Part shown: positions 1 to 13,844 of the stretch, piece after piece
Layout: each line of letters starts with the position of its first letter
Numbering within the stretch: position 1 is the stretch's first letter
DNA from: a virus
Lineage: Duplodnaviria; Heunggongvirae; Uroviricota; Caudoviricetes
DNA: 13,844 nt
Virus record (IMG/VR): IMGVR_UViG_2711768045_000004
Reading direction: 5' to 3' (one strand)
The notes under the pieces: model-generated
Told to the model about the DNA's origin: nothing
The model's input: the letters and a program-made list of their open reading frames with translations, nothing else
Databases searched by the model: none
Position numbers and translations under genes: made by a program

Positions 1-63
1 CACCCGCGGTGACTGCTCTGATTTAACCGACTCGTTCAGGCTTGCTTCGTGAATATCCTGCAT
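1..63 (-). CDS. L: Minor tail protein L, N-terminal fragment (runs off the window edge)
   Basis: Reverse complement of 1..63 reads ATG CAG GAT ATT CAC GAA GCA AGC CTG AAC GAG ... = MQDIHEASLNESVKSEQSPRV, matching the lambda gpL N-terminus (MQDIRQETLNEC..., from memory). The ATG overlaps the M stop as ATGA. Only 21 codons are visible. Confidence 0.75.
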   Translation of the reverse strand, partial: MQDIHEASLNESVKSEQSPRV

Positions 64-392
64 CAGTTCACCACCTGCTTAAACTCCGCGCTGAACTCAA
101 CGCGCAACATCCCGACCCGCGCAGACCACCCGGCACAGGTCACCTTTATCTGCCGGTATGCATAGGGTGGCTTCCACAAAAATGCCTTCCAGCCCCCGTG
201 CTCTGCCAGGAACGCTTCCAGATGCCGGGCCTCCTCCCGGCTCACGGAAAGCATCACCCGGTATGTTTTCAGGTCAGCATTCAGCCCTGCCGCCATACGC
301 TGTGAGTACCCGTCACCAAAACGCACTTCACGCACCGACGGCTGCGAGTTCACCTCCATATCCGGCTTCACTTTCCAGCGAAAGGTTTTCAT
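63..392 (-). CDS. M: Minor tail protein M
   Basis: 109-aa ORF (MKTFRWKVKPDMEV...RVEFSAEFKQVVN), near-identical in length and sequence to lambda gpM (109 aa). ATG at 392..390 overlaps the H stop as ATGA. Confidence 0.95.
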   Translation of the reverse strand: MKTFRWKVKPDMEVNSQPSVREVRFGDGYSQRMAAGLNADLKTYRVMLSVSREEARHLEAFLAEHGGWKAFLWKPPYAYRQIKVTCAGWSARVGMLRVEFSAEFKQVVN

Positions 393-3001
393 CGCCCGCT
401 CCCTGATAACATACCGCCATCACGCAACTGCAGCCGGAGTTCATCCTGCGCCCCCTTACGGGCCATGTCATACACCGCCTTCATCAGCTGCGGCCCCGCC
501 TGTCCGTTGATACCGTCGTTCTGAATCACCACGTGATTGTTCTGATTAAAATTAATACCTTCCGCCCGCCGCATCTGCGCCGGACTTCCGGCACCACCCA
601 CATAACCCCCTTCCGCATAGCCGCGCATCAGACGGTAAAGATTCCCCACGCCTATCCGGCTGGTTGCCTCCTTCGTGAAAACAAACTCCCCGCGGTGAAC
701 TATCCCCGCAGGCTCATATTTGCCGCCCGTCCCCGTAAATCCGCCGGTCGCAAAATGAAAGTTCGCCGCCGCAGCCTCAATGGCCGTTCCCGTGGAAGCG
801 GATGCGCCACCACCGAAAGCACCACCAATGGCGCTGCCGATACGCCCGACAATGCCCACCATGGCCTGTTTAAGCAGGATTTCTGTCATCATGGACAGCA
901 CCGAACGGGTGAATCCCCGCCAGTCTGCCTCTGCACCGGTCAGCATCGCCGCCATATTCTGTGCAATACCGTCAAAGGTCTGCGTGGCAGCACTTTTAAC
1001 CTGCGAAAAACTGTCCGTCGCACTTTCCGCCCACTCTCCCCAGCCGGACTTCAGCCCGGCCAGCCAGTCACCGCGCAGCATGTCTTCATCCGCCCATGTC
1101 TGTTTCAGTGCCCCGGTGACCCGGGCCAGCGCCTGCGGATTATCACCGTACACGTCACGAAGACGCTGCGCTTCAGACTCCCGCTGCGCCTGACGGTCAG
1201 TGAGACCGCGGGCTTTTGCGCTGATGGCGGCCTGCTTCGCGCTCTGTTGCTCTTCAAACCGCACCGCCTGCTGTGCCAGCTCATTCAGCCGTTTCTGGCG
1301 CTCCACCTTGTCGCCCAGCTCAGCCAGCTGGCGTTTGTACTCCAGCGTTTCTTTCTCATGAGCCAGCAGGGATTTCTCCTGCTCAGATAACTGTCGTTTC
1401 GTGGCAACCTCTTTCAGGACCGCATACTGACTTTCCGCCTTCCATAAATCACGGCGCTGCCGGCTGATTTTCTCATTCGCACCGCTGTGTTTTTCCAGCG
1501 TCCTGAGCTCAGCTTCAAGGGCAAGCAGAGCCTCTCTTGCCTGCTCCTCTTCCCTCTCCCCGGCAGAGCGCGTTTTCGGTGATGTATGCTTTTTACCTGT
1601 CAGCTCTTCAGCCAGACGGCTGACGGCTTCCTGCTGCCCCGGACCTTTGCTGACGCCTGTTGCACGCGAACGGTTGATGTACCCCATTTCCCCCTGGCGT
1701 ATACGCGCATCCCGTTCCGCAATGGATTTTCTCAGCGCCAGTTCATCACGTTTTGTTTTCTCAATAAATACGCGGTTCTCTTCTGCCAGTTCACCAAACA
1801 ACGCACCAACGCCGGGCACATTCTTTGTCGTTTCCCAGGCTGACTGAATAAATTCAGCCAGCGCCAGATCCCCCTGCACAAGCAGCAGCTTCACCTGTTC
1901 AACGGTTCCGGCCACCACGTCAGTGATCAGACTGAGTGCCCCCAGTGTATGATCACCTATCCATGCCCATGCGTCAGAAGTCCAGGTTTTAACATCGTCC
2001 CAGATTTTTTCCACCGGCGTGGCCGCTTTATCAAGTTGCTCCAGACGTGCATTCATGACATCCGCAAACAGGGACATCGCCTCCGTCACCGCAGCCTGTT
2101 TACCTTTCGTGCGCTCAAGCTCATCAATATGGCGTAACTGGGAAACGCTCAGGAAGTTATACTGCTGATTCAGGGAGGCCAGCGCCTTCACCGGATCTGC
2201 TGCAATCCCTTCAAAGGCTTTTTCCACCTTCCCGGCATCGTCTCCCACCGTCTGCAGCCATCTCTGAGAGGTTTCCCCCATGATCCGTAGCTGCCCGGCG
2301 GTATATTTCCCGCTTTCTGCCAGACGGGCCAGATTTTCTGCCGCCTGTCTGATACCACCACCGGCTTCATCGCTGATCACCCCGGCCATTTTCCACAATT
2401 CGGCCGTTGTGGTGGCAGCCGCCCCTCCGGTCAGGGTCAGTGAACGCAATAAGGCCCGGTCAGCCTGCTCTGCCTGCCAGGCGGCGGCAGCAAGCGCGGC
2501 CAGTACGGCAACCCCGCCACCTGCCGCCACACGGGCCACCGACATAAATCGCCCCAGTTCACCGGCATTCCGGGCATTTTCAGCCAGTGCATTTGCCGTA
2601 TCTGACAGCGAATCCTCTGATGATTCAGAGGCATCCCTGATCCCGAGAAGTTCCTCCTTCAGCAGGGTAAGCAGGCTGAGCGGTCCACCGAATGAATCGC
2701 TGATCTGCCCCCCCTGCTGCAGCATGATAAGGAAGGGATTCTGACCACCGGCAAGCTGAGTGACAATATCCGTGAACTGTGCGGGCAGTGTGCGCATGGC
2801 AGCCTTATACTGTCCGACTGATATCCCGGCTTTTTGTGCAGCCAGCGCCTGGCGGCTCAGCCCCTGTTCAACAGTACTGGCGGTTTTTCTGGCATCCGCC
2901 TCCAGACTGGAAAAATGGCGGCGTACCCGGGCCATCTGTTCATCAAACCGGGCCGCATCCAGACTCAAATCAATAACCAGATCACCCGCTGGCTGGGACA
3001 T
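389..3001 (-). CDS. H: Tail tape measure protein H
   Basis: 870-aa ORF. The N-terminus (MSQPAGDLVIDLSLDAARFDEQMARVRRHF...) and C-terminal half (...ELRTLEKHSGANEKISRQRRDLWKAESQ...GGFTGTGGKYEPAGIVHRGEFVFTKEATSRIGVGNLYRLMRGYA...) match lambda gpH (853 aa); the middle section is divergent. The start overlaps the end of the T frame. Confidence 0.95.
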   Translation of the reverse strand: MSQPAGDLVIDLSLDAARFDEQMARVRRHFSSLEADARKTASTVEQGLSRQALAAQKAGISVGQYKAAMRTLPAQFTDIVTQLAGGQNPFLIMLQQGGQISDSFGGPLSLLTLLKEELLGIRDASESSEDSLSDTANALAENARNAGELGRFMSVARVAAGGGVAVLAALAAAAWQAEQADRALLRSLTLTGGAAATTTAELWKMAGVISDEAGGGIRQAAENLARLAESGKYTAGQLRIMGETSQRWLQTVGDDAGKVEKAFEGIAADPVKALASLNQQYNFLSVSQLRHIDELERTKGKQAAVTEAMSLFADVMNARLEQLDKAATPVEKIWDDVKTWTSDAWAWIGDHTLGALSLITDVVAGTVEQVKLLLVQGDLALAEFIQSAWETTKNVPGVGALFGELAEENRVFIEKTKRDELALRKSIAERDARIRQGEMGYINRSRATGVSKGPGQQEAVSRLAEELTGKKHTSPKTRSAGEREEEQAREALLALEAELRTLEKHSGANEKISRQRRDLWKAESQYAVLKEVATKRQLSEQEKSLLAHEKETLEYKRQLAELGDKVERQKRLNELAQQAVRFEEQQSAKQAAISAKARGLTDRQAQRESEAQRLRDVYGDNPQALARVTGALKQTWADEDMLRGDWLAGLKSGWGEWAESATDSFSQVKSAATQTFDGIAQNMAAMLTGAEADWRGFTRSVLSMMTEILLKQAMVGIVGRIGSAIGGAFGGGASASTGTAIEAAAANFHFATGGFTGTGGKYEPAGIVHRGEFVFTKEATSRIGVGNLYRLMRGYAEGGYVGGAGSPAQMRRAEGINFNQNNHVVIQNDGINGQAGPQLMKAVYDMARKGAQDELRLQLRDGGMLSGSGR

Positions 3002-3844
3002 ATCTCACACCTCCGGAAATCCCCGCTGAAGCCATCATTAATGCAACATCATCTTCGCTGACATCCACCACATCCGCAGAAGGTGAAATATCGCCCCCTC
3101 CGTCCCCTCCGAACCGGACGCCTCCGGCAACTCCTGTCGCTTTCTGCATCAGCATGTCTTCCTCGTCCGGCATCTCCGTCTGCTCTTCCTCACACGCTGG
3201 AGCAAGCAGACTGAAATCCGCCGGATGCATATCCGGATCGCCAAAAAACAGGCTGAGTACGGCGTACATCAGCCCGGAAAAATGAGCGTCCAGTTGGGTA
3301 TCCTGAAAATAATGCGTGCAGTAAAAACGTCGCCAGTCGGCATATTCGGTGGATGTCATCCCGGCAAGCATGGCGCGCCAGTCGGCTCTCCCCATCTCAC
3401 GCGCCAGTTTCAGGACAAAGTTCAGCTCGCCTTCGAATGCTTTTTTGATGTTACCGGCTCAGTCGCTTCTGCTTTCCCGGTTTGTTCAGGATCGGCATCG
3501 TGCCGGTTATCCAGCATACCTGAAAGATAAAGCACCCGGTTCGTTGCCTGATTCAGTGCATCAGCAGGCCATCCCAGCATCACTTCACGGCGGATCTGCT
3601 GCATCTCTGTCTCCGGAGAGGCCAGAGTGCCTTTGAGGGAATGGGAATGCCATAGCGACATCGCCACAAGCAGGGATGCCGTTTCCAGATATCGCTGGTT
3701 AATGTGCACGGCATCATGCTTCGTTGTCTCCTGTTGTTCTGCGTCTGAAACAAACTTTATATAATCAAACCGCTGCAGCGCGGACAGTTCCGACAGCGTG
3801 ACGGACACACCGTTATATTCAAATTGTTCTGTTTTCAGGAACAT
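2982..3844 (-). CDS. T: Tail assembly chaperone G-T fusion made by programmed -1 ribosomal frameshift at 3446..3440
   Basis: The -1 frame downstream of the slippery heptamer is open to the TGA at 2982..2984 and reads KKAFEGELNFVLKLAREMGRADWRAMLAGMTSTEYADW..., homologous to the lambda T part of gpG-T (..FDGELSFALKLAREMGRPDWRAMLAGMSSTEYADW.., from memory). The T frame has no credible independent start/RBS at the position-equivalent site. Confidence 0.8.
3422..3844 (-). CDS. G: Tail assembly chaperone G (zero-frame product)
   Basis: The track ORF 3422..3958 contains MFLKTEQFEYNGVSVTLSELSALQR..., matching the lambda gpG N-terminus. The in-frame ATG at 3844..3842 gives 140 aa (lambda G = 140 aa) and is preceded by GGGGAGGAG (RBS). 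The longer track start (GTG at 3958) would overlap V and is rejected. Confidence 0.9.
   Translation of the reverse strand: MFLKTEQFEYNGVSVTLSELSALQRFDYIKFVSDAEQQETTKHDAVHINQRYLETASLLVAMSLWHSHSLKGTLASPETEMQQIRREVMLGWPADALNQATNRVLYLSGMLDNRHDADPEQTGKAEATEPVTSKKHSKAS
3440..3446 (-). other. Programmed -1 frameshift slippery heptamer A AAA AAG
   Basis: Minus-strand sequence ...ACA TCA AAA AAG CAT TCG... in the G zero frame: the heptamer A_AAA_AAG is in the correct X_XXY_YYZ phase, 6 codons before the G stop, at the same relative position as lambda's G_GGA_AAG. Confidence 0.75.
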
Positions 3845-3860
3845 GCTTGATCTCCTCCCC

Positions 3861-4610
3861 TCAGCCCGCAGCGCCATCCGTGACGGTGATCTCCGCCACC
3901 GCCGCAAACTCACCATTGCCGGTGACAACAGGGATCTGTGCTTTACCTGCCGCAACACCTTTCACCGTGATCGTGTTCCCTTTCACGGTAATGGTGGCGA
4001 AATTCTGATTTGCCGACGTTGCGCGGAATGTTTTATCCGTTGCGCCTTCCGGCTGAACGGCCACAGTCAGGGTGGTGCTCTGACCTTTTGCCACATTCCC
4101 CGTTAGTGGCGTCACGGTAATACCGGTGACCGGTGTGATTTCTCCCCGATCCTCCGCCAGCGAAGGACGACCGATATTGGTGATTTTTACCGTACGGGTA
4201 ATCACTTCTTTGGCGGTCACCGCTTTACCAATGGCGCTCACCCAGCCACGGAACACATCCACCGTACCGTTCGGGAAGCGGATTTTGTAGGCCCGGGTCT
4301 CACTGCTGTCAAACCAGGCAATCAAATCACGCTGCCCTTTCTCGCCGGGCTTCCAGGCCAGCGTAAAACTGGTGTCACCGGCAGATTTCTGCCCCTGCCC
4401 GGTGGATACCCAGTCGGCATCCTCATCATCCAGATAGTTATCGTCGTAGGATTCCGCCGTCATCTCGCCGGGGGTCAGATCCTTTATTTTTGCCAGACGC
4501 GTCCACTCATCATCTGACAGCGGGTTTGCATAAGCATCGCCCTTACCGGTGTAAACCCAGAGCGTGGTGCCGGAACCTTTTACCGGCGCCAGGGGATTTG
4601 GTTTTGCCAT
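3861..4610 (-). CDS. V: Major tail protein V
   Basis: 249-aa ORF ([33 protein letters not shown]...), matching lambda gpV (246 aa), including the C-terminal Ig-like region (...[14 protein letters not shown]..). RBS GAGGA upstream. Confidence 0.95.
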
Positions 4611-4617
4611 ATCATCC

Positions 4618-5013
4618 TCACATCTCGTATGTAATGGAATAAGTCAGATCTGCAGAGCTCCACAATGCCATATCGTCATCACGACGATACTCATAGCCCT
4701 GCGTAACCATCGTGGTAATCATGCCTGCCAGTGCAGGGATCGCCGCCATCGCCGGGTAAATCCGGCTTTCCATCCACTGATCAAGCTCTGAATCCGGTAC
4801 CTGTGCCGGTAAAAACACCTCAATATGCAGTGTGGCCCGCCAGGTATCTGCATCCAGCTCTTCACCGGTATACTCTGCATCCGTCAGATAAACCGCGATC
4901 GCGGGAAAATCCTCTTCGTCAAAAACAACGGGGCGACCATCAAACAGCGTCGCCCCGTGTTCATGCTGCTCGAGTGCATCCAGCACTGCGGCACGAATAT
5001 CAGTGTGTATCAT
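4618..5013 (-). CDS. U: Tail terminator protein U
   Basis: 131-aa ORF ([28 protein letters not shown]...LTYSITYEM), matching lambda gpU (131 aa). The start overlaps the Z stop as ATGA. Confidence 0.95.
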
Positions 5014-5585
5014 CGTTTTATCGCGATCCTCAGTTGTTGTTTCAGCGCATATGCCAGTTCTTTGGGCAGGCGTTCACGACGGATACGGTCAACGTTTTCA
5101 TCAAACGCCTGTTTCAGTGGGGCCGCCATCGGGATTTTCACCACCTGAATGGGAAGGCGATTACGCTTTTTCCTGCCCTTGTCGTCATAGCCCTTCTCAT
5201 ATCTGGCTTCGGGAAGACGTTGCATAACATGCCAGCGCCCATTATTTAATCGCTGGATAAATGCCCGCTGATAACGATGCTGACCGGCTTTGAGTATGCT
5301 GTCCGGACGACGCCCCAGCATTCTGATCCCCAGCTTAATCACAGGGAGATCACCGCGGTTAACGATAATTTTTGCATTCGGATTTCTGACCGTGGCCCGT
5401 TTCAGTCTGGACCGTTCCTTAACCAGTTTCCGGCGTACCTTTGTCTCCCGGGCAACCTGTGATGAAGACTGATTAATCGCCGTTGTGGCCACGCGGTTAA
5501 TCGTCATTGCTGAAGCAGCAGGAATGGCGTTTTTACGAACCCGGCTCAGATTTTCAATCGCCTGATCAAGCCCTTTTATCGCCAT
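5010..5585 (-). CDS. Z: Tail completion protein Z
   Basis: 191-aa ORF (MAIKGLDQAIENLSRVRKNAIPAASAMTINRVA...LRIAIKR), matching lambda gpZ (192 aa). Confidence 0.95.
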   Translation of the reverse strand: MAIKGLDQAIENLSRVRKNAIPAASAMTINRVATTAINQSSSQVARETKVRRKLVKERSRLKRATVRNPNAKIIVNRGDLPVIKLGIRMLGRRPDSILKAGQHRYQRAFIQRLNNGRWHVMQRLPEARYEKGYDDKGRKKRNRLPIQVVKIPMAAPLKQAFDENVDRIRRERLPKELAYALKQQLRIAIKR

Positions 5586-5600
5586 AATTTCACCCTGCGT

Positions 5601-5954
5601 TTATCGTCGCCGGTTAACAGCGGGTGGGTGCCCACGGTTGAGCCAGAGATAACAGCTGCCCCCGTCATCCGGAGAAACACGATCCACCCAGAACATCCCG
5701 CCGTTAATGGTCAGCGTGTCACCACGCCGCACGGCACGCACCGTATCCGTCCGCACAAATAATGACGGGCTGCTTCCTTCAATACGGACCCCGCCACCGG
5801 CAAAACCCAGCGACTCCGGATCGTCAAAAACCCCCTGAACTTCGCCGCCACGCTGTGCACCGGAGGTGAACTGCGCACGGATCCCCATCACTTCAACTAT
5901 CGTACTGTCCACCCCGGAGAGGGCAGCATCAAAGGCATTCTGAAAATCACGCAT
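5601..5954 (-). CDS. FII: Head-tail joining protein FII
   Basis: 117-aa ORF (MRDFQNAFDAALSGVDSTI...WVDRVSPDDGGSCYLWLNRGHPPAVNRRR), matching lambda gpFII (117 aa) with a near-identical C-terminus. The start overlaps the FI stop. Confidence 0.95.
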   Translation of the reverse strand: MRDFQNAFDAALSGVDSTIVEVMGIRAQFTSGAQRGGEVQGVFDDPESLGFAGGGVRIEGSSPSLFVRTDTVRAVRRGDTLTINGGMFWVDRVSPDDGGSCYLWLNRGHPPAVNRRR

Positions 5955-6315
5955 AAACGGCCATTCCGCTCTTGACCATGTCTTTTGCCTCTGAGGGAGG
6001 CATCAGAATTACTCTGCCAGCATCAACATACTCAACGGGCTCCCCTGTTTCATCGTCAACCCCACACAGGTAAAAACACTTCAGAAGTCTGATACGTTCC
6101 AGAATACCTAAGGCATCCTCATCGGTGTTCCTGTATGCCTGCTCATGAACGACATCATCAACACCTGAGATTTCATTTTCCGATGCGCAAACCTCCTCTT
6201 CCCACTCAGCCACACGCTGTGCGATATCCGCTGCACTCCCCGACATATCCGGCTCGCGCCCCAGCAGGCCAGCCAGTTCACGAAGACGTTTCTGATTTTC
6301 TTCTTTTGTTGCCAT
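5947..6315 (-). CDS. FI: DNA-packaging / head assembly protein FI-like
   Basis: Position between E and FII, and N-terminus MATKEENQKRLRELAGLLG.. resembling lambda gpFI (MTKDELIARLRSLGEQL..); the rest is divergent from lambda. Start placed at the ATG at 6315..6313 (about 122 aa); the track's GTG at 6342 lies inside the upstream hairpin loop. Confidence 0.75.
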   Translation of the reverse strand: MATKEENQKRLRELAGLLGREPDMSGSAADIAQRVAEWEEEVCASENEISGVDDVVHEQAYRNTDEDALGILERIRLLKCFYLCGVDDETGEPVEYVDAGRVILMPPSEAKDMVKSGMAVYA

Positions 6316-6331
6316 ATCCAGCCCCCCAGTG

Positions 6332-6360
6332 AAAAAAGACACGGGGGCATTTCGCCCCCG
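6332..6360 (-). terminator. Putative intrinsic terminator/attenuator hairpin immediately 3' of E
   Basis: Minus strand after the E stop: TAA TCCGGGAG CGGGGGC-GAAAT-GCCCCCG TGTC TTTTTT CAC. Perfect 7-bp GC stem, 5-nt loop, then a U-rich tract (UGUCUUUUUU). Confidence 0.45.
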
Positions 6361-6368
6361 CTCCCGGA

Positions 6369-7397
6369 TTATTTCACCTGTACCACCACAAACTCATCCG
6401 GATCCGGCAGCACCATCAGCGGTGCAGACTGCGTCATGGTGAATTCACGGGCCGGATCGCCCACGGTCAGCCAGTGTTTCGGGTAACGGGAAGAAGCCAC
6501 CACACCTTCGGACAACGCCTGCGCATCCTGAATGGCACCATAGCAACGGATGCCCTCAGCAGCCGTATTTCCCAGGACCAGCGTGCCCTCCGGCAAATAA
6601 CGTTTTTCGGTACCGTCCTCTGCCACATAAGACGTTTTCGCCACCACAATGGCCAGATCGCCGTAATACCCTTTGAAAGACACCACCGCCCCCAGGTCTT
6701 TCACTGCCGTTTCGAGTTGTGAATTTGAGCCGCGACGGGTATCCAGTTTTTCGCGGAACAGCTTAAAGCCATTCAGCAGACGCCAGACGGTACCGTCCAT
6801 AATGGCAATATTCACAAGACCGCTGGCCTGATCACAGAAAAGGTCGATATCATATGTCGGGTCGAACGTGTCACGGTCCTGTTTTGACCACTCCTTACCG
6901 CTACCCTGTATGATGTTATTCTTCGTCGATCTGCCAAAATCAACCTCAATTTTCTCGAACTGGTCTCCTTCCATGGTGTATTTGCCATACAGCACGGCAT
7001 TCACCGCCTGCACTTCTTCCACCTGGACAATGGCGTGCTCTTCCTGTTTGAGGTTATCGGTGATGATACGCAGACGACGGTAGGCCGGGTCGTTCAGTTG
7101 CGCCGGATCTTCACCGGGAAGGCGCTCCACCGCCTGCTGGTAATTAAATTCGTGTTTCGGCTTGACGTAGCCCGGACGTAACACGCGGGTTTCACCACCA
7201 CGATGACGCAGCACTTTTCCTTCAACAACCGGGGAGACATAGGCTGCCACCGGCGTTTTTCCGGTAATTTTGTCCAGCATCACCTCTTCGGTGTGGAAAT
7301 TCACCGTACGGCGGAAAAACAGTTCCAGAAACAGCGCACGAAATTTCACTTTTTGTTCGGTATAACCGAGTAACTGGCGGGTCGTAAACAATCCCAT
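6369..7397 (-). CDS. E: Major capsid protein E
   Basis: 342-aa ORF (MGLFTTRQLLGYTEQKVKFRALFLELFFRR...TGDPAREFTMTQSAPLMVLPDPDEFVVVQVK), matching lambda gpE (341 aa) throughout. RBS AAGGA 8 nt upstream. Confidence 0.97.
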   Translation of the reverse strand: MGLFTTRQLLGYTEQKVKFRALFLELFFRRTVNFHTEEVMLDKITGKTPVAAYVSPVVEGKVLRHRGGETRVLRPGYVKPKHEFNYQQAVERLPGEDPAQLNDPAYRRLRIITDNLKQEEHAIVQVEEVQAVNAVLYGKYTMEGDQFEKIEVDFGRSTKNNIIQGSGKEWSKQDRDTFDPTYDIDLFCDQASGLVNIAIMDGTVWRLLNGFKLFREKLDTRRGSNSQLETAVKDLGAVVSFKGYYGDLAIVVAKTSYVAEDGTEKRYLPEGTLVLGNTAAEGIRCYGAIQDAQALSEGVVASSRYPKHWLTVGDPAREFTMTQSAPLMVLPDPDEFVVVQVK

Positions 7398-7426
7398 AAA
7401 TCAGTTCCTTTCATTCAGAAATCAGT

Positions 7427-7446
7427 CAGGCCACCGCGGTGGCCTG
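7427..7446 (-). other. Perfect 20-bp palindrome (potential RNA hairpin or protein-binding site) in the D-E intergenic region
   Basis: CAGGCCACCGCGGTGGCCTG reads identically on both strands; it lies 8 nt after the D stop codon and about 30 nt before the E start. Confidence 0.4.
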
Positions 7447-7454
7447 ATAACGTG

Positions 7455-7802
7455 TTACGGCAGCGCCGCGTGACTCAGGGCTGTGCCGACAAAGGCGTTG
7501 GCCTTTTTGTGTTCATCCACACGTTCAGGCCAGTGGATTGCCTCCGTCGCAAAGGTCCCCGACTTGTAATAGGTCAGCACCGTCTCTGTGCCTTCAAGCG
7601 GCAGTACCAGTATGCCAACCGCACTACCGGCTTTCTGTCCGTCCCAGACCACCAGTTTCCCGGTGGACTCATCCAGCATCAGGGGGGTCAGTGCCGGTGT
7701 TGCCTGAGAAATCCCGCTGCTGCCTGTGGCGGTATGAGCCGGATCATTACCGGCAAAAATACGTACTTCCGCACGTTGTTCAGTGATGGTTTTCGTCACC
7801 AT
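7455..7802 (-). CDS. D: Head decoration protein D
   Basis: 115-aa ORF (MVTKTITEQRAEVRIFAGNDPAHTATGSS...TPLMLDESTGKLVVWDG...YYKSGTFATEAIHWPE..), matching lambda gpD (110 aa). Confidence 0.95.
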   Translation of the reverse strand: MVTKTITEQRAEVRIFAGNDPAHTATGSSGISQATPALTPLMLDESTGKLVVWDGQKAGSAVGILVLPLEGTETVLTYYKSGTFATEAIHWPERVDEHKKANAFVGTALSHAALP

Positions 7803-7837
7803 TTTGTTAAAACCTCATATTGATGTCAGCACTGACT

Positions 7838-8623
7838 TCATGGCATGGCCATGAGCATTTTCACGTCCGCATCACCGTCTGCTGACGTCTGTGGCACGCC
7901 ACCCTGCACCGCTGCCGGTGAATGGTTCGCCATGAAATGTTCAAACAGGGCGGTTGTGGATGCAGAAACCGGTTCTGCCTTACCTGATCCCGCAGCCAGC
8001 ACAGCCCGGGCGTTCTCCACGGTCATTCCCGGGCAGGCCGCCAGTTTTTCAGCCTGCGCCTCAGCCCCTTTTGCCTCCTCCAGATCCATAATCTGATCAC
8101 GGAGTGAGGGCCCGGCATCCGCCCGTGGTGCAGCCGCCAGGACAGGGCGGGCTTTTTCCACCGTCATATCCGACATCGCCGCCAGCATTGCCGCCAGTTG
8201 TTCACGACCTTTCGCTTCTTCACACGCCATAATGCGATCGGCTTCACTCTGCGCGGATGCCACCGGCTGCTGTGATGCTGCCGCGGCCAGAATCGCCCGG
8301 GCCTGTTCAACGCTCATGCCCTGTTGTCCTGCCAGCATCGTGGCAAGGTGTTCACGTCCTTTCGCTTCCTGACACGTCAGGATCCCCATCACTCGCTGGT
8401 TCTCCTGCGCGGCAGCTTCCGTTGCAGTTAATTGCGGCATAGTGCCTCCTGTATCATGTGTGTTCAGCGCCGCAGCCATCACGCTGATGGCATCCGACGC
8501 ATTGATTAATTCATCCGCCAGTCCGGCCTTAATACCGGACTGACCTTCAAAAACGGCAGCCTCTGTCCCCGTGACCGCATCCACAGACAGCCCGGTATAC
8601 ATCGCCACTTTTTCGGCAAACAT
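7838..8623 (-). CDS. nu3: Putative scaffolding protein Nu3 (nested in-frame internal start within C, sharing its C-terminus)
   Basis: By analogy with lambda, where nu3 starts in-frame at about codon 239 of C. The in-frame ATG at 8623..8621 (C codon 241, MFAEKVAMYTGLSV..) is position-equivalent. The start is not verifiable from sequence alone and the RBS is weak. Confidence 0.45.
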   Translation of the reverse strand: MFAEKVAMYTGLSVDAVTGTEAAVFEGQSGIKAGLADELINASDAISVMAAALNTHDTGGTMPQLTATEAAAQENQRVMGILTCQEAKGREHLATMLAGQQGMSVEQARAILAAAASQQPVASAQSEADRIMACEEAKGREQLAAMLAAMSDMTVEKARPVLAAAPRADAGPSLRDQIMDLEEAKGAEAQAEKLAACPGMTVENARAVLAAGSGKAEPVSASTTALFEHFMANHSPAAVQGGVPQTSADGDADVKMLMAMP

Positions 8624-9343
8624 CCGGTGCGCCGCATCAATGCGCTGCTGCATGTCCTGACGCACCTCTGACGGTAACGCTTCAAACTGATTGCCATCCA
8701 CCTTATGCGCCCCGGCATAAATCAGCGTGATATCCACTCCGGCCTGCGCCAGATGACCGGCATAGCTGACATGGCTCATCATCACGCCAATGGAGCCGAT
8801 ACGGGATGTCTGGGTAACCAGCCGTCGGGAGCAGGCCGACGCCAGCAGCATGGCTGCAGAACAGGCCGTGTCATTACACAGTGCCCAGACCGGCTTCTGC
8901 TGCCGGAGGCGGTAAATCATGTCAGCGCAGTCAAACGCGCCTGCGGCCTGCCCGCCCGGACTGTCAATGTCCAGCAGTACGCCCCGCACCTGGCTATCCG
9001 CCATTGCCTGCTGAAGACAGGCGACAATGCCGTCATAGCCTGTCATTCCGGAAAATGGCCGCATGCCACCCAGCCGGTGCACCAGCGTGCCGGTCACCGG
9101 CAGTACAGCAATACCGTTCACCACCCGGTAAACACGGGCCGGTCGTTTACCTCCGGCCATGTACTCGTCCGTTTCAGCCAGCATTCCGGGAGCATCAAGC
9201 TGTACCTGCTGTTGTGGTACCGAAAGACTTGCTGCCCCCATCTCGCGCCCGAGCGCGCAAAAGAAAACCCGCGCATAGGCGGGCTCCAGAAGCAGTGGTT
9301 CATTGAATGCTGCGGCAATAATGTGTGAAAGATTACGTCTCAC
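7838..9343 (-). CDS. C: Head maturation protease / scaffold C (S49/ClpP-like N-terminal protease domain plus C-terminal scaffold region)
   Basis: 501-aa ORF with a GTG start at 9343 preceded by GGAAGAGGAG, overlapping the B stop by 11 nt. N-terminus MRRNLSHIIAAAFNEPLLLEPAYARVFFCAL.. and the core (..VWALCNDTACSAAMLLASACSRRLVTQTSRIGSIGVMM..) match lambda gpC (439 aa, from memory). Confidence 0.93.
   Translation of the reverse strand: MRRNLSHIIAAAFNEPLLLEPAYARVFFCALGREMGAASLSVPQQQVQLDAPGMLAETDEYMAGGKRPARVYRVVNGIAVLPVTGTLVHRLGGMRPFSGMTGYDGIVACLQQAMADSQVRGVLLDIDSPGGQAAGAFDCADMIYRLRQQKPVWALCNDTACSAAMLLASACSRRLVTQTSRIGSIGVMMSHVSYAGHLAQAGVDITLIYAGAHKVDGNQFEALPSEVRQDMQQRIDAAHRMFAEKVAMYTGLSVDAVTGTEAAVFEGQSGIKAGLADELINASDAISVMAAALNTHDTGGTMPQLTATEAAAQENQRVMGILTCQEAKGREHLATMLAGQQGMSVEQARAILAAAASQQPVASAQSEADRIMACEEAKGREQLAAMLAAMSDMTVEKARPVLAAAPRADAGPSLRDQIMDLEEAKGAEAQAEKLAACPGMTVENARAVLAAGSGKAEPVSASTTALFEHFMANHSPAAVQGGVPQTSADGDADVKMLMAMP
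7955..8395 (-). repeat. Three tandem in-frame repeats (about 40-50 codons each) inside the C/nu3 scaffold-coding region
   Basis: Protein units RVMGILTCQEAKGREHLATMLAGQQGMSVEQARAILAAAAS / RIMACEEAKGREQLAAMLAAMSDMTVEKARPVLAAAPR / QIMDLEEAKGAEAQAEKLAACPGMTVENARAVLAAGS. The DNA shows the same repeats, e.g. ttcacgacctttcgcttcttcacacgccataatgcgatc versus ttcacgtcctttcgcttcctgacacgtcaggatcccc. Confidence 0.8.
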
Positions 9344-10925
9344 GTGGTGTTGTCTCCTCTTCCGGCCTGCGACTCTCCGCTATCTGCTGCTGATACGCCT
9401 GCGCTATCCACACCGGACGTGAGAGTCCGGCTTTTTCCCGCTCTGCAGATTCCCTGACCTGCTGGCGGAAAATGTCCTGATAATCCTCGCCCATCAGCGC
9501 CAGCTCTTTCTCATACGTGCTCAGTCCGGCCTCAATGCGCATCACTGATTCCTGAACCTCCTTGAGCCCGTCAATGGCCATTCTTCCGGCTCCAATCCAC
9601 TCAGCCCGTGACCAGGCTGATCGCGCCTGATAAAAATCAAAACGTGCCCGTGGCGGACGAATAATCCCCCGAAGAAGTGCCTCTTCCAGCCAGCAGGAAA
9701 ACATCTGCGTGGCCAGCCGGGACGCAATAAATTTTCGCCGCCCCATAAAATAGCGCCACGACTCATTGGCGGATGCGCGGGCACTTGAATAACTGACCTT
9801 CGAGTAATCACGGGACAACTGTTCGTAGGAAACGCCAAGACCGGCGGCGATATACCGCAGCAGCGCCTGTTCAAGCGCCGAAAATCCATTGTCTGAATCC
9901 TGCGCGGTCTGAAGTTTCAGATCATCACCGGGGAAAAGGTGCGGAATTTTGACACCGCCCAGCGTCACGCTATTCGTGTCATACCAGGTGGAGAACTTAT
10001 CCAGAATATTAATAAGCGGATTATCCTTCTGCCCCTGCGGCGCACCGGCGATATATTCAAAGGCCTTTTCGGTATCAAGGTCACTTTCAATCGTCGCTGC
10101 ATACATCGCCTTCACTATGGCCGACTGAAGCTGTGTTGCCTGCAGGGAATCGAGCATCTTCAGCCGTTCCATGACGCTGTAAAACTGATTGGCCCCACGG
10201 GTCTGCCCGTCCTCCACCGGCTCGAAAATATGCAGCATGGCCGGACGCCCGGTGGGAAGTTCACGCGGGATCCGTTCCCATCGTCCACTCCCGGAGAACG
10301 GAAAATCATCCTCACAGATATGGTACGCAACGGCACGGCCATATCGATCGACCTCCACACCGGCCCGCAGAAAGCGGTTCCCCATACCGTGCCCTGGCGT
10401 GTCCACCCGTTTCGGACTCACGGCTTTAAAACGCGTACGAAACAGCTGCGTGCTCTCCGTATCCCAGACCGGCTGCACAAAGATTTCGCCGTTAAAGGCA
10501 TGAACGCCCACACCTTCACGGATAAATTCCGTAAACGTGCGTTTCCCTTCCACGTCGATCTCGCCAAACATCCCTTCGGCGTATTCCGACCAGGCCGCCT
10601 CCACCTCATCGACAAAACTTTTTGCCGCAGTCTCCCGCATCCCCAGCCAGCGCCAGTTCGGACGGTAGCTGATCAGAAACATATGCCCGACAATATGATC
10701 CTTATGCAGGGCCACCGCATTAGCCGCTATCCCGTTATTGCGTACCAGATCATCTGCACGGGCATTCCCCAGACGCAACGCGGGCAGCAGGGCCGCATCG
10801 GCACTCTGCGAGGGTGGCAACCACTCCGCCATTTGCCCGCCAAATCCTGCACCGCCCCCGTGGTAGCTGAGACTCTCCCGAAGCGGAACGCCGTTCACAT
10901 CAATCAGGACAGGCGTTCGTTTCAT
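9333..10925 (-). CDS. B: Portal protein B
   Basis: 530-aa ORF (MKRTPVLIDVNGVPL...), size and position match lambda gpB (533 aa). ATG at 10925 overlaps the W stop as ATGA. Confidence 0.95.
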   Translation of the reverse strand: MKRTPVLIDVNGVPLRESLSYHGGGAGFGGQMAEWLPPSQSADAALLPALRLGNARADDLVRNNGIAANAVALHKDHIVGHMFLISYRPNWRWLGMRETAAKSFVDEVEAAWSEYAEGMFGEIDVEGKRTFTEFIREGVGVHAFNGEIFVQPVWDTESTQLFRTRFKAVSPKRVDTPGHGMGNRFLRAGVEVDRYGRAVAYHICEDDFPFSGSGRWERIPRELPTGRPAMLHIFEPVEDGQTRGANQFYSVMERLKMLDSLQATQLQSAIVKAMYAATIESDLDTEKAFEYIAGAPQGQKDNPLINILDKFSTWYDTNSVTLGGVKIPHLFPGDDLKLQTAQDSDNGFSALEQALLRYIAAGLGVSYEQLSRDYSKVSYSSARASANESWRYFMGRRKFIASRLATQMFSCWLEEALLRGIIRPPRARFDFYQARSAWSRAEWIGAGRMAIDGLKEVQESVMRIEAGLSTYEKELALMGEDYQDIFRQQVRESAEREKAGLSRPVWIAQAYQQQIAESRRPEEETTPRET

Positions 10926-11128
10926 AACCTCACTCCCAGCGGACGACGGCGACGGCGGGTTGTCCCCTGTACCGACTCCGCATCATTGATCGCACGGTTA
11001 AGCTCATCCAGAGAAGCCGCCGTATATTCAATTCTGCGACCATCTTTCTGGACAGACACCACCCGTTTACCGGTTAATAAATCAAGGCGCGCCTGACGCA
11101 GCGCCTGCAGTTCAGCGACTGTAACCAT
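10922..11128 (-). CDS. W: Head-tail joining protein W
   Basis: 68-aa ORF ([54 protein letters not shown]..), matching lambda gpW (68 aa; ..[27 protein letters not shown]..). Strong RBS GGAGGAG upstream. Confidence 0.93.
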   Translation of the reverse strand: MVTVAELQALRQARLDLLTGKRVVSVQKDGRRIEYTAASLDELNRAINDAESVQGTTRRRRRPLGVRL

Positions 11129-13061
11129 TCACTCCTCCGGACAGCTTCGCTGCCAGTTCTTTCAGGGTTGGCCGGGTCGTCTCTTCTTCCCGGGATTTTG
11201 CCAGTACAGCCAGATCAAGCTGCCAGCGTTGCACGGACACACGTAATGCCGCGTAGGCATACACCAGGCAGTCCAGCGCTTCGTTACGCCGCTTTTTGTT
11301 ATCCCACAGCAGACGCATCTTTCCTTTTTCCCACTTCTCCACCAGCTCTTCCGCCACCAGTTGCTGCGCCTCTGTCTGCGAAAAAATCTCCGGATCATCA
11401 GGAAAACGGATGGCATACGACGTGGCTGCATCCGCAGGTGTGGGATCGGCTTTCATACGGGCATAGAGAATTTCTTTTGCGGTGTCCGTCCCCACTTCAC
11501 ACAGATACACGCCCCGCTGATTGCGGGTTTTTGGCATGGTGATCACCGGCTTGCCATAGACAGATGCGCCTTTTACCGGCAGCACCCGGAAAACACCGTG
11601 TTTTTTTGATCTCTGATAAACGATTTCGCCATCGATCCCCCCGGTGTCCCAGCAGACCCGGGAAATGGTCATTTCGGTTCCGTCTGCATGGCGGTATTTT
11701 TTGTTGATCGCCGCATCCACACGTAACAGCGTCTCTTCCTCATCGGGACGCCCCATAATGATGATTTTATCCACCAGAAAGGCTTCCTCTCCCGGAGCCC
11801 ATCCCCAGACATACATCTCAAAACGGTTTCGCTGCGAGTCAATGCCCGCCGTCAGATAAACCACCCGGGCAGGCACCGCCGCCGTGTAACGCACAACCTT
11901 ATCCATCAGTACCTGGTGATCGAGTTTTTCGCCCACGGCCTCTTCCCAGGTCTCGCCCAGCGTGGTGTTCACAAAAGTTTTCACGCCGTTGGGATCTTTC
12001 AGTGCATCCAGCCAGTCATAGACTATCTGTACCCAGGTAGTGAACGGACTGTACGCCGTCCAGATATGGAACGTGATGGAGCGCGGCGGCGGAATTTCAT
12101 TACCCGCAGCGCTGAAAAACGTCAGACCATCACGGGTCCACATCCCCGTGTTTTCACAGATCCACCGCCCGTTGCTCTGGTCAAGCTCAGACTGATGGAT
12201 CACGCAGCCATGATGTTCACAGAGGTAGAAAACGCTTTCGGGGCTGTCCTTCTCCCATTTAAGGCCAAAAGGCGTGGACTCATCGCCAAATTTCAGATAC
12301 TGCTCCTCCCCACAGTGTGGGCAGGGCACATAAAAACGCATGAAATGCGCCGACTCATTGGCCGCTTTTTCGATCTGGCAGGAGCCTTTTATTTTAGGCG
12401 TCGAGCCGCGAATGGATTTTGGCCATACAGAGCCCTCAATACGCTTATCCCCCAGCAGGGTTGGCGAGCCCTCTTTTTCAACATCCGGCTCGAACGAGGA
12501 AAGCTCGTCATAACAGACCACGTCCACGGATTTTTCACGGTAGTTTTTGGCGGCAGCGCCGCCCAGGCACCAGAACCCAACACGTGACGTAAACCTTTTT
12601 AATGTCAGCGTGTTATCCCTGTGCTTACGTCCCAGCCAGGGGGAAAGAATTTTCAGACAAGGGACATCCCGTAACGTTGACTCCACGTGAGATTTCATAA
12701 AATCTTCAGCAGATGAATCTGTCGGTTGGAACAATAAAGTGTTACGGCTTTTATGCTCGATAAAATACCCGACCACGCCCAGTAACATCTTTGTATAACC
12801 AACACGGGCAGATTTAATCAGATTAACCGTGCGGATCCGGTCATTCCCCATGCAGTTCATTATTGCCATCTGAAATGGCAGAGTTTCCCAGCGACCAGCA
12901 AGATACGAAGACTCTGGTGGTAGATAATAATGTCTGTCAGCCCACTCAACTGGCGTCACAGGCAATGGCCGAATCATCCCCTTTAACCCGGCCCGGAATG
13001 GAAAAACAAACTTATGAATTTGACTCTCTAATGTAGTCTGCAAGCATATCTGGTAACCCAT
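11112..13061 (-). CDS. A: Terminase large subunit A (ATPase/endonuclease)
   Basis: The track ORF 11112..13076 (654 aa) matches lambda gpA (641 aa) from ..[31 protein letters not shown] onward through the ATPase and nuclease regions. Start is uncertain: the ATG at 13061 is chosen here; alternatives are the GTG at 13076 or the TTG at 13043. Overlaps the 3' end of nu1, as in lambda. Confidence 0.93.
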
Positions 13062-13560
13062 CTGCAGTATCCGCACACTTGTTAGATGCTTTTGCTATCT
13101 CCGATTTCAAAAACTCAAGGGCGGAAGGGGGAAATTCAGGGAATTGTCTCTGCATATACAGTGGAATACTGTCAAGAATACCGGAAATGTCCTGCGCAAG
13201 ACGCGCCAGTGCATACATACAAAAACCAGTATCAATCACCTGCCCACTGTCGCGGGCATTTTTCAGTTCCTGTGCATCTGCCTGTGCCTTCGTCAGTCGG
13301 TAACGTTCGTAATCAATGGTACCGGGCTGAAGGTCAGTCTCGCTGGCAGCTCTCAAATCTTCGACCTCTTTACGGAGTTTTTCGTTTTCAATATCGGCTT
13401 CACGCTGCGCATACCATTCGATCGCCTTCGCAGAATCAAAAATGATCTCAATACCTTTTCCTCCACCAGATATCTGAGGGAGCCCCTGAGTTTGCCAGCG
13501 TTCAATTGTACGCGGATCAACATTAAACATTTCCGCAAGGTTCTTTTTGTTAACATGCAT
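13012..13560 (-). CDS. nu1: Terminase small subunit Nu1 (N-terminal winged HTH that binds cosB)
   Basis: 182-aa [73 protein letters not shown]..., about 60-70% identical to lambda Nu1 (MEVNKKQLADIF..., 181 aa). RBS GAGG 9 nt upstream of the ATG at 13560. Confidence 0.95.
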
Positions 13561-13734
13561 ATAACAACCTCATTCAAAAATCAGTTACGACACAAAACGG
13601 CCTGAAAATGCCTTTCTTCCACGCACCTGTGACGGTCCTTTTTTCTTACGTACCGTTTAAAAACAATACATTACATATAATCAGTACCGACATGATTTTC
13701 CCCGGAAAATTTTCATAAATAGTGAAAACGCGCG
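13561..13734 (-). promoter_or_regulatory. cosB: terminase small-subunit binding region with an A/T-rich putative IHF bend site, between cosN and the nu1 start
   Basis: Position between cosN and nu1. The first 33 nt after cosN (CGCGCGTTTTCACTATTTATGAAAATTTTCCGG) are near-identical to lambda. Further in lie R-site-like elements (AAGAAAAAAGGACCGTCACAGGTGCG; GGCCGTTTTGTGTCG) and an A/T-rich tract (TTATATGTAATGTATTGTTTTTAAAC). Confidence 0.65.
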
Positions 13735-13746
13735 AGGTCGCCGCCC
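13735..13746 (-). other. cosN: 12-nt cohesive-end sequence GGGCGGCGACCT (lambda-type)
   Basis: Plus strand 13735..13746 is aggtcgccgccc, the reverse complement of GGGCGGCGACCT, which is identical to the lambda cohesive end. Flanks (..CCGTTACG | GGGCGGCGACCT | CGCGCG..) also match the lambda right/left end junction. Confidence 0.85.
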
Positions 13747-13750
13747 CGTA

Positions 13751-13780
13751 ACGGGTCCATATGCCGGAAAGGACCCGAGA
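13751..13780 (-). promoter_or_regulatory. cosQ-like element upstream of cosN
   Basis: Minus strand CTCGGGTCCTTTCCGGCATATGGACCCGTTACG resembles the lambda right-end cosQ region (..ACGGGTCCTTTCCGGTGATCCGACAGGTTACG, from memory). Contains an inverted repeat GGGTCC(N12)GGACCC at 13753..13776. Confidence 0.5.
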
Positions 13781-13844
13781 AAATGATAATGGTTATCAGT
13801 TGCAACAAATCCAGTTTCTTCCGCCATCGCACCGGACCAGCGAC

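Follow-up and report, generated by a model that had tools for sequence, protein, structure and literature searches.

The window analysed here, the whole 13,844 nt stretch of phage DNA, carries on its minus strand a small terminase gene, terS (13012..13560), and a large terminase gene (11112..13076). The terS product is a 182-amino-acid homologue of lambda Nu1 and phage 21 gp1 that matches the Pfam family Phage_Nu1 over its full length (E=2.6e-77), and phage 21 gp1 shares 64% identity with it, lambda Nu1 58% and the TerS of Escherichia phage PhiR5_1 81%. The large terminase is a homologue of gpA, the nuclease that would nick cosN, with matches to GpA_ATPase (E=1.6e-54) and GpA_nuclease (E=1.6e-70); its ORF is listed from the first possible start codon, and a near-identical relative is annotated at 649 aa. 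After the terminase, the genes follow the lambda order of portal, S49 protease/scaffold, D, E, Z, U, V, G, T and tape measure, and all head and terminase ORFs in the window are intact. A slippery heptamer of the lambda type, GGGAAAG, is present at 3472-3478 on the minus strand, within the G ORF (3422-3958) and upstream of the T ORF (2982-3395). This places it near the end of the gene for the tail assembly chaperone G, where lambda makes its G-T fusion by -1 frameshifting.

The lambda 12 nt cohesive end GGGCGGCGACCT occurs in the window as one exact copy (12/12), at 13735-13746 on the minus strand, and 98 bp separate cosN from the window end at 13844. About 0.002 occurrences of a given 12-mer would be expected by chance in 2 x 13.8 kb. 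The composite pattern GGGTCCT-N21-CG-GGGCGGCGACCT-CG, which joins cosQ to cosN, is matched exactly at 13733-13776 (minus strand) and by none of 200 dinucleotide-preserving shuffles, which rules out a chance occurrence of the cos pattern. To compare the site with known systems, we numbered offsets on the minus strand starting at the cohesive end's first base, rebuilt the joined cos of lambda from NC_001416, and compared each element at equal offsets. The phage 21 reference was M81255, in which R4/cosQ, I2, R3, I1, R2, R1 and gene 1 are annotated. On this scale the terS ATG lies at offset 187, and its counterparts at 189 (phage 21) and 191 (lambda).

The packaging-termination element cosQ, GGGTCCT, is found at 13770..13776 on the minus strand (offsets -30..-24) and matches lambda, phage 21 and PhiR5_1 at 7/7 positions. 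We take cosQ to be exactly this heptamer, as reportedly defined by Wieczorek & Feiss 2001; a literature text search for the heptamer gave no relevant paper. The heptamer is unchanged at the same offset in seven other cos sites (lambda, phage 21, PhiR5_1, Gifsy-1, IdasGreatGrand, 4A7 and PhiR12_1) while its flanks diverge, and in the phage 21 record M81255 it falls inside the feature 'R4 ... terminal cos cleavage'. Between cosQ and cosN is a variable 21 bp spacer (13749..13769, minus strand, offsets -23..-3) that matches lambda at 13/21 positions and phage 21 at 12/21. The length of this spacer is kept and its sequence is not, even among contigs with the same cosB. A perfect 6 bp inverted repeat, GGGTCC-12 nt-GGACCC, spans 13753-13776 on the minus strand with one arm in cosQ. 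The repeat is present in PhiR5_1 and in a prophage of E. coli 2013C-4282, and is absent from lambda and phage 21 and also from three IMG/VR contigs whose cosB is the same. It is therefore probably incidental, and we dismissed it as a structural element over cosQ because it is not conserved among these same-cosB relatives.

The 16 bp nicking site cosN, CG/GGGCGGCGACCT/CG = CGGGGCGGCGACCTCG, occupies 13733..13748 on the minus strand (offsets -2..14) and is identical to that of lambda and phage 21 (16/16). By our own count, 10 of its 16 positions are twofold symmetric, the value reported for lambda cosN (PMC9026076). Offsets 15-29 match lambda at 13/15 positions, and the following segment is I2, TATGAAAATTTTCCG (13703..13717, minus strand, offsets 30-44), which corresponds to the I2 annotated in M81255 and is required for efficient termination (PMC4669245). 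This I2 is the lambda version (15/15) rather than that of phage 21 (13/15). By BLAST, window offsets -52..+45 are 85.6% identical to lambda. The lambda-like sequence that had been claimed on both flanks of the cohesive end is thus real for about 50 bp on each side, and it gives out past offset 45, where the R3, R2 and R1 slots match lambda at only 9/16, 7/16 and 5/16 positions respectively.

From I2 to the terS start codon, cosB (13561-13702) contains elements in the slots at which phage 21 has its R boxes and I1. The R3 box, AATCATGTCGGTACTG, is of the phage 21 type and lies at 13682..13697 on the minus strand (offsets 50-65), with 14/16 matches to phage 21 R3 in the same register and 9/16 to lambda. 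At bp 56 and bp 59 it has G, as does phage 21, whereas the lambda bases at these positions are T and C, respectively. The R1 box, TTTTGTGTCGTAACTGATT (13579..13597, minus strand, offsets 150-168), is in the phage 21 R1 slot and is nearly identical to CATGTCGTAACTGATTTTTGA, the R1 of PhiR5_1; over offsets 150-165 it reads TTTTGTGTCGTAACTG, which matches phage 21 at 10/16 positions and lambda at 5/16. R3 and R1 form a direct repeat with 12/14 identities (TGTCGGTACTGATT / TGTCGTAACTGATT) exactly 100 bp apart, and a repeat of such quality appeared in 2.4% of cosB shuffles (P about 0.024). The cores are TGTCGG in R3 (offsets 55-60, as in phage 21), TGTCGT in R1 and TGACGG in the R2 slot, and R3 and R1 have in common an extended ACTGATT that the phage 21 boxes lack. 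A third R-box-like copy, TGTTGCAACTGATA, was noted on the minus strand upstream of cosQ (13794-13807, offsets -61..-48), with 11/14 identities to R1; it is present in PhiR5_1 and not in the contig L012, and may be due to chance.

The predicted IHF bending site I1, TGTAATGTATTGTTT, lies between R3 and R2 at 13661..13675 on the minus strand (offsets 72-86) and matches phage 21 I1 at 11/15 positions and lambda at 10/15. With one mismatch or fewer, the IHF consensus WATCAANNNNTTR is found seven times in the whole window, which is no commoner than expected by chance. Only the position of the match at 13661-13673, in the predicted I1 slot, is telling. For R2 the candidate is AAGGACCGTCACAGGT at 13625..13640 on the minus strand (offsets 107-122), inverted with respect to R3 and R1 and located in the phage 21 R2 slot, with 9/16 matches to phage 21 and 7/16 to lambda. 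The best inverted match to R3/R1 anywhere in cosB, TGTGACGGTCCTT (8/13), falls in this slot, yet the inverted-repeat statistics are not significant alone (shuffle P 0.35-0.42). We therefore regard R2 as a positional candidate only, a putative homologue in the place of phage 21 R2.

In general, this arrangement has key features of the lambda-like cos class, which includes lambda, 434, phi80, 21, N15, Monarch and Gifsy-1. The 12 bp cohesive end and its flanking CG agree at 16/16 positions, a 7 bp cosQ lies upstream of cosN at the fixed spacing, and Nu1-family TerS and gpA-family TerL genes adjoin downstream. In the cosB plan of the class (R3-I1-R2 inverted-R1, with R3 at about bp 50-65), R3, I1 and R1 are at the expected offsets, and the candidate R2 has the right slot and orientation but no significance by itself. 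Read on the minus strand, the site is very probably the DNA-packaging cos of a lambdoid (lambda-family) prophage of E. coli, with a predicted initiation specificity like that of phage 21. This is a textbook system in a common type of prophage. The original prediction, made before these comparisons, had recognized the lambda cohesive end, had placed it about 100 bp from the window edge and had described a complete cosQ-cosN-cosB layout over 13561-13780. Each of these points is borne out: the spacing is that of lambda and 21, intact Nu1-family and gpA-family terminase genes follow, 13561 adjoins the terS ATG, and 13780 is just past cosQ. The label 'lambda-type' that it used holds for the architecture and for cosQ, cosN and I2; for initiation specificity it does not, given the 21-like cosB and TerS helix.

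A comparison with individual phages separates the parts of the site. Phage 21 has the same cosQ and 16 bp cosN, has every subsite at the same offset, agrees at 14/16 positions of R3 including the G at 56 and 59, and differs at one of the eight residues of the TerS helix. It differs from the window in R2 (9/16) and R1 (10/16), in the unrelated I1-R2 interval (5/20), in I2, and in its TerS, which has Ser24 where the window has Thr24, a different wing and 64% identity overall. Lambda (NC_001416) is identical in the cohesive end, the flanking CG, cosQ and I2, has the same R3-I1-R2-R1 order, and carries Nu1 and A homologues followed by a head/tail module in the same order. In contrast, the R-box core is TGTCG in the window and CGTTTCC in lambda, and the TerS helix is RTIERWQT rather than RTIQNWQE. 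The best match among phage records, at 80-84% across cos and terS, is PhiR5_1 (PV340545), together with a related E. coli O22:H8 prophage. PhiR5_1 was deposited as a phage with E. coli C as host, and its cosB is related to that of the window. The two are identical over offsets -30..+14, including the cosQ-cosN spacer, and are nearly the same in R1 and the leader, with TerS identity of 81%. PhiR5_1 differs in its R3, AAGCATGTCAGTTCTT (12/16, with A at bp 59), in a clear inverted R2, CTGATGTCGTTTC, and in its helix, RTIDRWQT. A literature search on PhiR5_1 and PhiR12 found nothing relevant.

On a fine scale, cosB is a mosaic. Its offsets 45-65 are like those of phage 21 and IdasGreatGrand and its offsets 150-186 like those of PhiR5_1; only a few relatives have the middle (offsets 87-149). 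An exact 40-mer from the I1-R2 region had no match in GTDB species-representative genomes and three in IMG/VR, none of them identical to the window, while a wider 445 bp query reached 95% identity or more in about 28 complete genomes of E. coli. Four relatives, L001 and L012-L014, have the same cosB; with differences at only 2 of its about 190 positions, they are uninformative about constraint on this element. PhiR12_1 (L011, 600-800) and many records of Stx1a-converting phages (H31-H40) have offsets -98..+45 in common with the window at about 91% identity. Past offset 45 they have an unrelated cosB with repeats of the ATGTCCGGTT type and a different small terminase. This pattern shows a conserved cosQ-cosN-I2 cassette beside a cosB/TerS module that can be exchanged.

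The DNA of the window continues across cosN for 98 bp, through the cosQ homologue of the right end, and, as had been proposed, the site therefore represents a joined cos and not the end of a virion chromosome. No terminator-like site was found on the minus strand from the window edge to terS, a result that fits late transcripts crossing the joined cos. That the joined form would be a prophage, and not a circle or concatemer, is suggested by relatives. With 13400-13844 as query, 859 of 5426 complete E. coli genomes had some match, all chromosomal, and the best public match (99.6% over 445 bp) was to the chromosome of E. coli 2013C-4282. There the cos belongs to a complete lambdoid prophage, about 52 kb long, at ompW (NZ_CP027579.1, about 1259700-1311900), whose int/xis end adjoins intact ompW and whose tail-fibre end adjoins a 126 bp ompW fragment. 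Upstream of its cos are Q, tRNA genes, a NanS-p-type esterase, holin, lysozyme and Rz, and downstream are head and tail genes. Among the genes of this prophage are hokD, dicB, lom and two for tRNAs, and no stx is annotated in it. The IMG/VR contig L013, which has the same cosB and is 98% identical over the common ~1.7 kb spanning cos and terS, has a NanS-p-like esterase, a phage-21-type holin, lysozyme and Rz before cos. Both relatives agree with the expectation that the lysis and late-regulation side lies beyond cosN, with Q further on. No complete E. coli genome matched the whole window above 96.6% identity, and the window is another mosaic member of this prophage population.

Lambda and 21 discriminate more than 1000-fold against each other's DNA although their cosQ and cosN are identical (PMC4669245). 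We considered whether lambda Nu1 might bind this cosB and give the site true lambda packaging specificity. The identity of cosQ, cosN and I2 to lambda and the common architecture and spacing would allow this, but the R boxes match lambda at only 9/16, 7/16 and 5/16 positions. Recognition depends critically on base pairs 56 and 59 of R3, which are specificity determinants, and Glu24 of lambda TerS clashes with the G:C pair at bp 56 of phage 21 R3 (PMC4669245). The window has G:C rather than the T:A of lambda at bp 56, and Thr24 rather than Glu24. Its TerS recognition helix (residues 17-24, with bounds taken from PMC9026076) is RTIERWQT; it is unlike RTIQNWQE of lambda at residues 20, 21 and 24, and it matches RTIERWQS of phage 21 at 7/8 residues. 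We rejected lambda specificity on the R boxes, these two base pairs and the recognition helix, and regard it as very improbable. Because both bp 56 and bp 59 are G, because R3 (14/16) has the core of the 21 type, and because the helix is unlike that of 21 only in the change of Ser24 to Thr, we read cosB as 21-type, and its initiation specificity is predicted to be phage-21-like and not lambda-like. Lambda terminase would then not be expected to start packaging here. The termination elements are common to lambda, 21 and many Stx phages. Cross-specificity with phage 21 itself is unproven, as R1 and R2 match at 10/16 and 9/16 positions and Thr24 replaces Ser24. The sole helix difference is at the residue implicated in contacting bp 56 in lambda. 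A third specificity, unlike both lambda and 21, might be defined by the natural hybrid cosB together with its TerS, whose helix is RTIERWQT and whose wing is like that of PhiR5_1. The mosaic structure of cosB, with a middle part (87-149) peculiar to a small clade, and the ACTGATT extension of R3 and R1 are compatible with this idea. However, at the positions tied to specificity by experiment (bp 56 and 59 of R3; residues 20 and 21 of the helix) the window agrees with 21, and Ser to Thr is a conservative change, so that we consider a third specificity unlikely. If true, it would represent a natural intermediate in the co-evolution of cosB and TerS by recombination inside cosB.

Two further explanations were weighed. 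Gram-negative PICIs (phage-inducible chromosomal islands), such as those of the EcCICFT073 type that depend on Rpp, hijack the terminase of a helper phage, and their cosQ and cosN are nearly identical to those of lambda-like helpers, with conserved spacing. PICI cos sites, however, lack R boxes and are followed by rpp in place of the TerS, TerL and head genes. As the window has R3 and R1, then terS, terL and a complete head/tail module in lambda order, we rejected a PICI cos on gene content, and its probability is practically negligible. The cos could instead be intact in sequence and functionally dead in a cryptic, non-inducible prophage. Most E. coli lambdoid prophages are defective somewhere, the window covers 13.8 kb only, and the prophage of the closest relative, that of 2013C-4282, has several frameshifted genes. 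Against these points, all cos subsites in the window are intact, and so are all of its head and terminase ORFs. We judge a dead cos to be rather improbable, though a case to be reckoned with, and one that would leave the identity of the site unchanged.

With the elements, spacing, terminase genes and joined state observed here, a course of packaging can be predicted from the lambda/21 paradigm (PMC9026076, PMC4669245). After induction and rolling-circle replication, the winged helix-turn-helix motifs of TerS dimers would bind R3 and R2 across a bend made by IHF at I1, and TerL would thereby be anchored on cosN. The nicks that TerL would then make in cosN are predicted, with a spacing of 12 bp, between 13747/13746 (minus strand) and between 13735/13734 (plus strand). 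The terminase would stay on the cosB end, and packaging would run toward the Nu1, A and head/tail genes, in the direction of falling window coordinates. The terminating cut would be triggered at the following cos of the concatemer by its cosQ, cosN and I2. Position 13746, with the 5′ overhang GGGCGGCGACCT, would consequently be the first of the virion chromosome, and 13747 the last.

The main value of these assignments is for annotation, as they give the packaging origin, its direction, the predicted virion ends (13746/13747) and the joined, prophage-like form of the DNA. They also predict which helper terminases could mobilize the prophage, with initiation by one of the 21 type and termination by any that is lambda-like. 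For the mobilization of STEC prophages and cos-bearing islands this is of minor relevance, and it opens no new question. The window and L001, its closest cos relative, are 97.6% identical over 6193-13844 and 95.7% identical over 3771-5968. Over window positions 1-3770, in the tape-measure region, they are about 89% identical or do not align, which indicates a recombination breakpoint in the tail genes.
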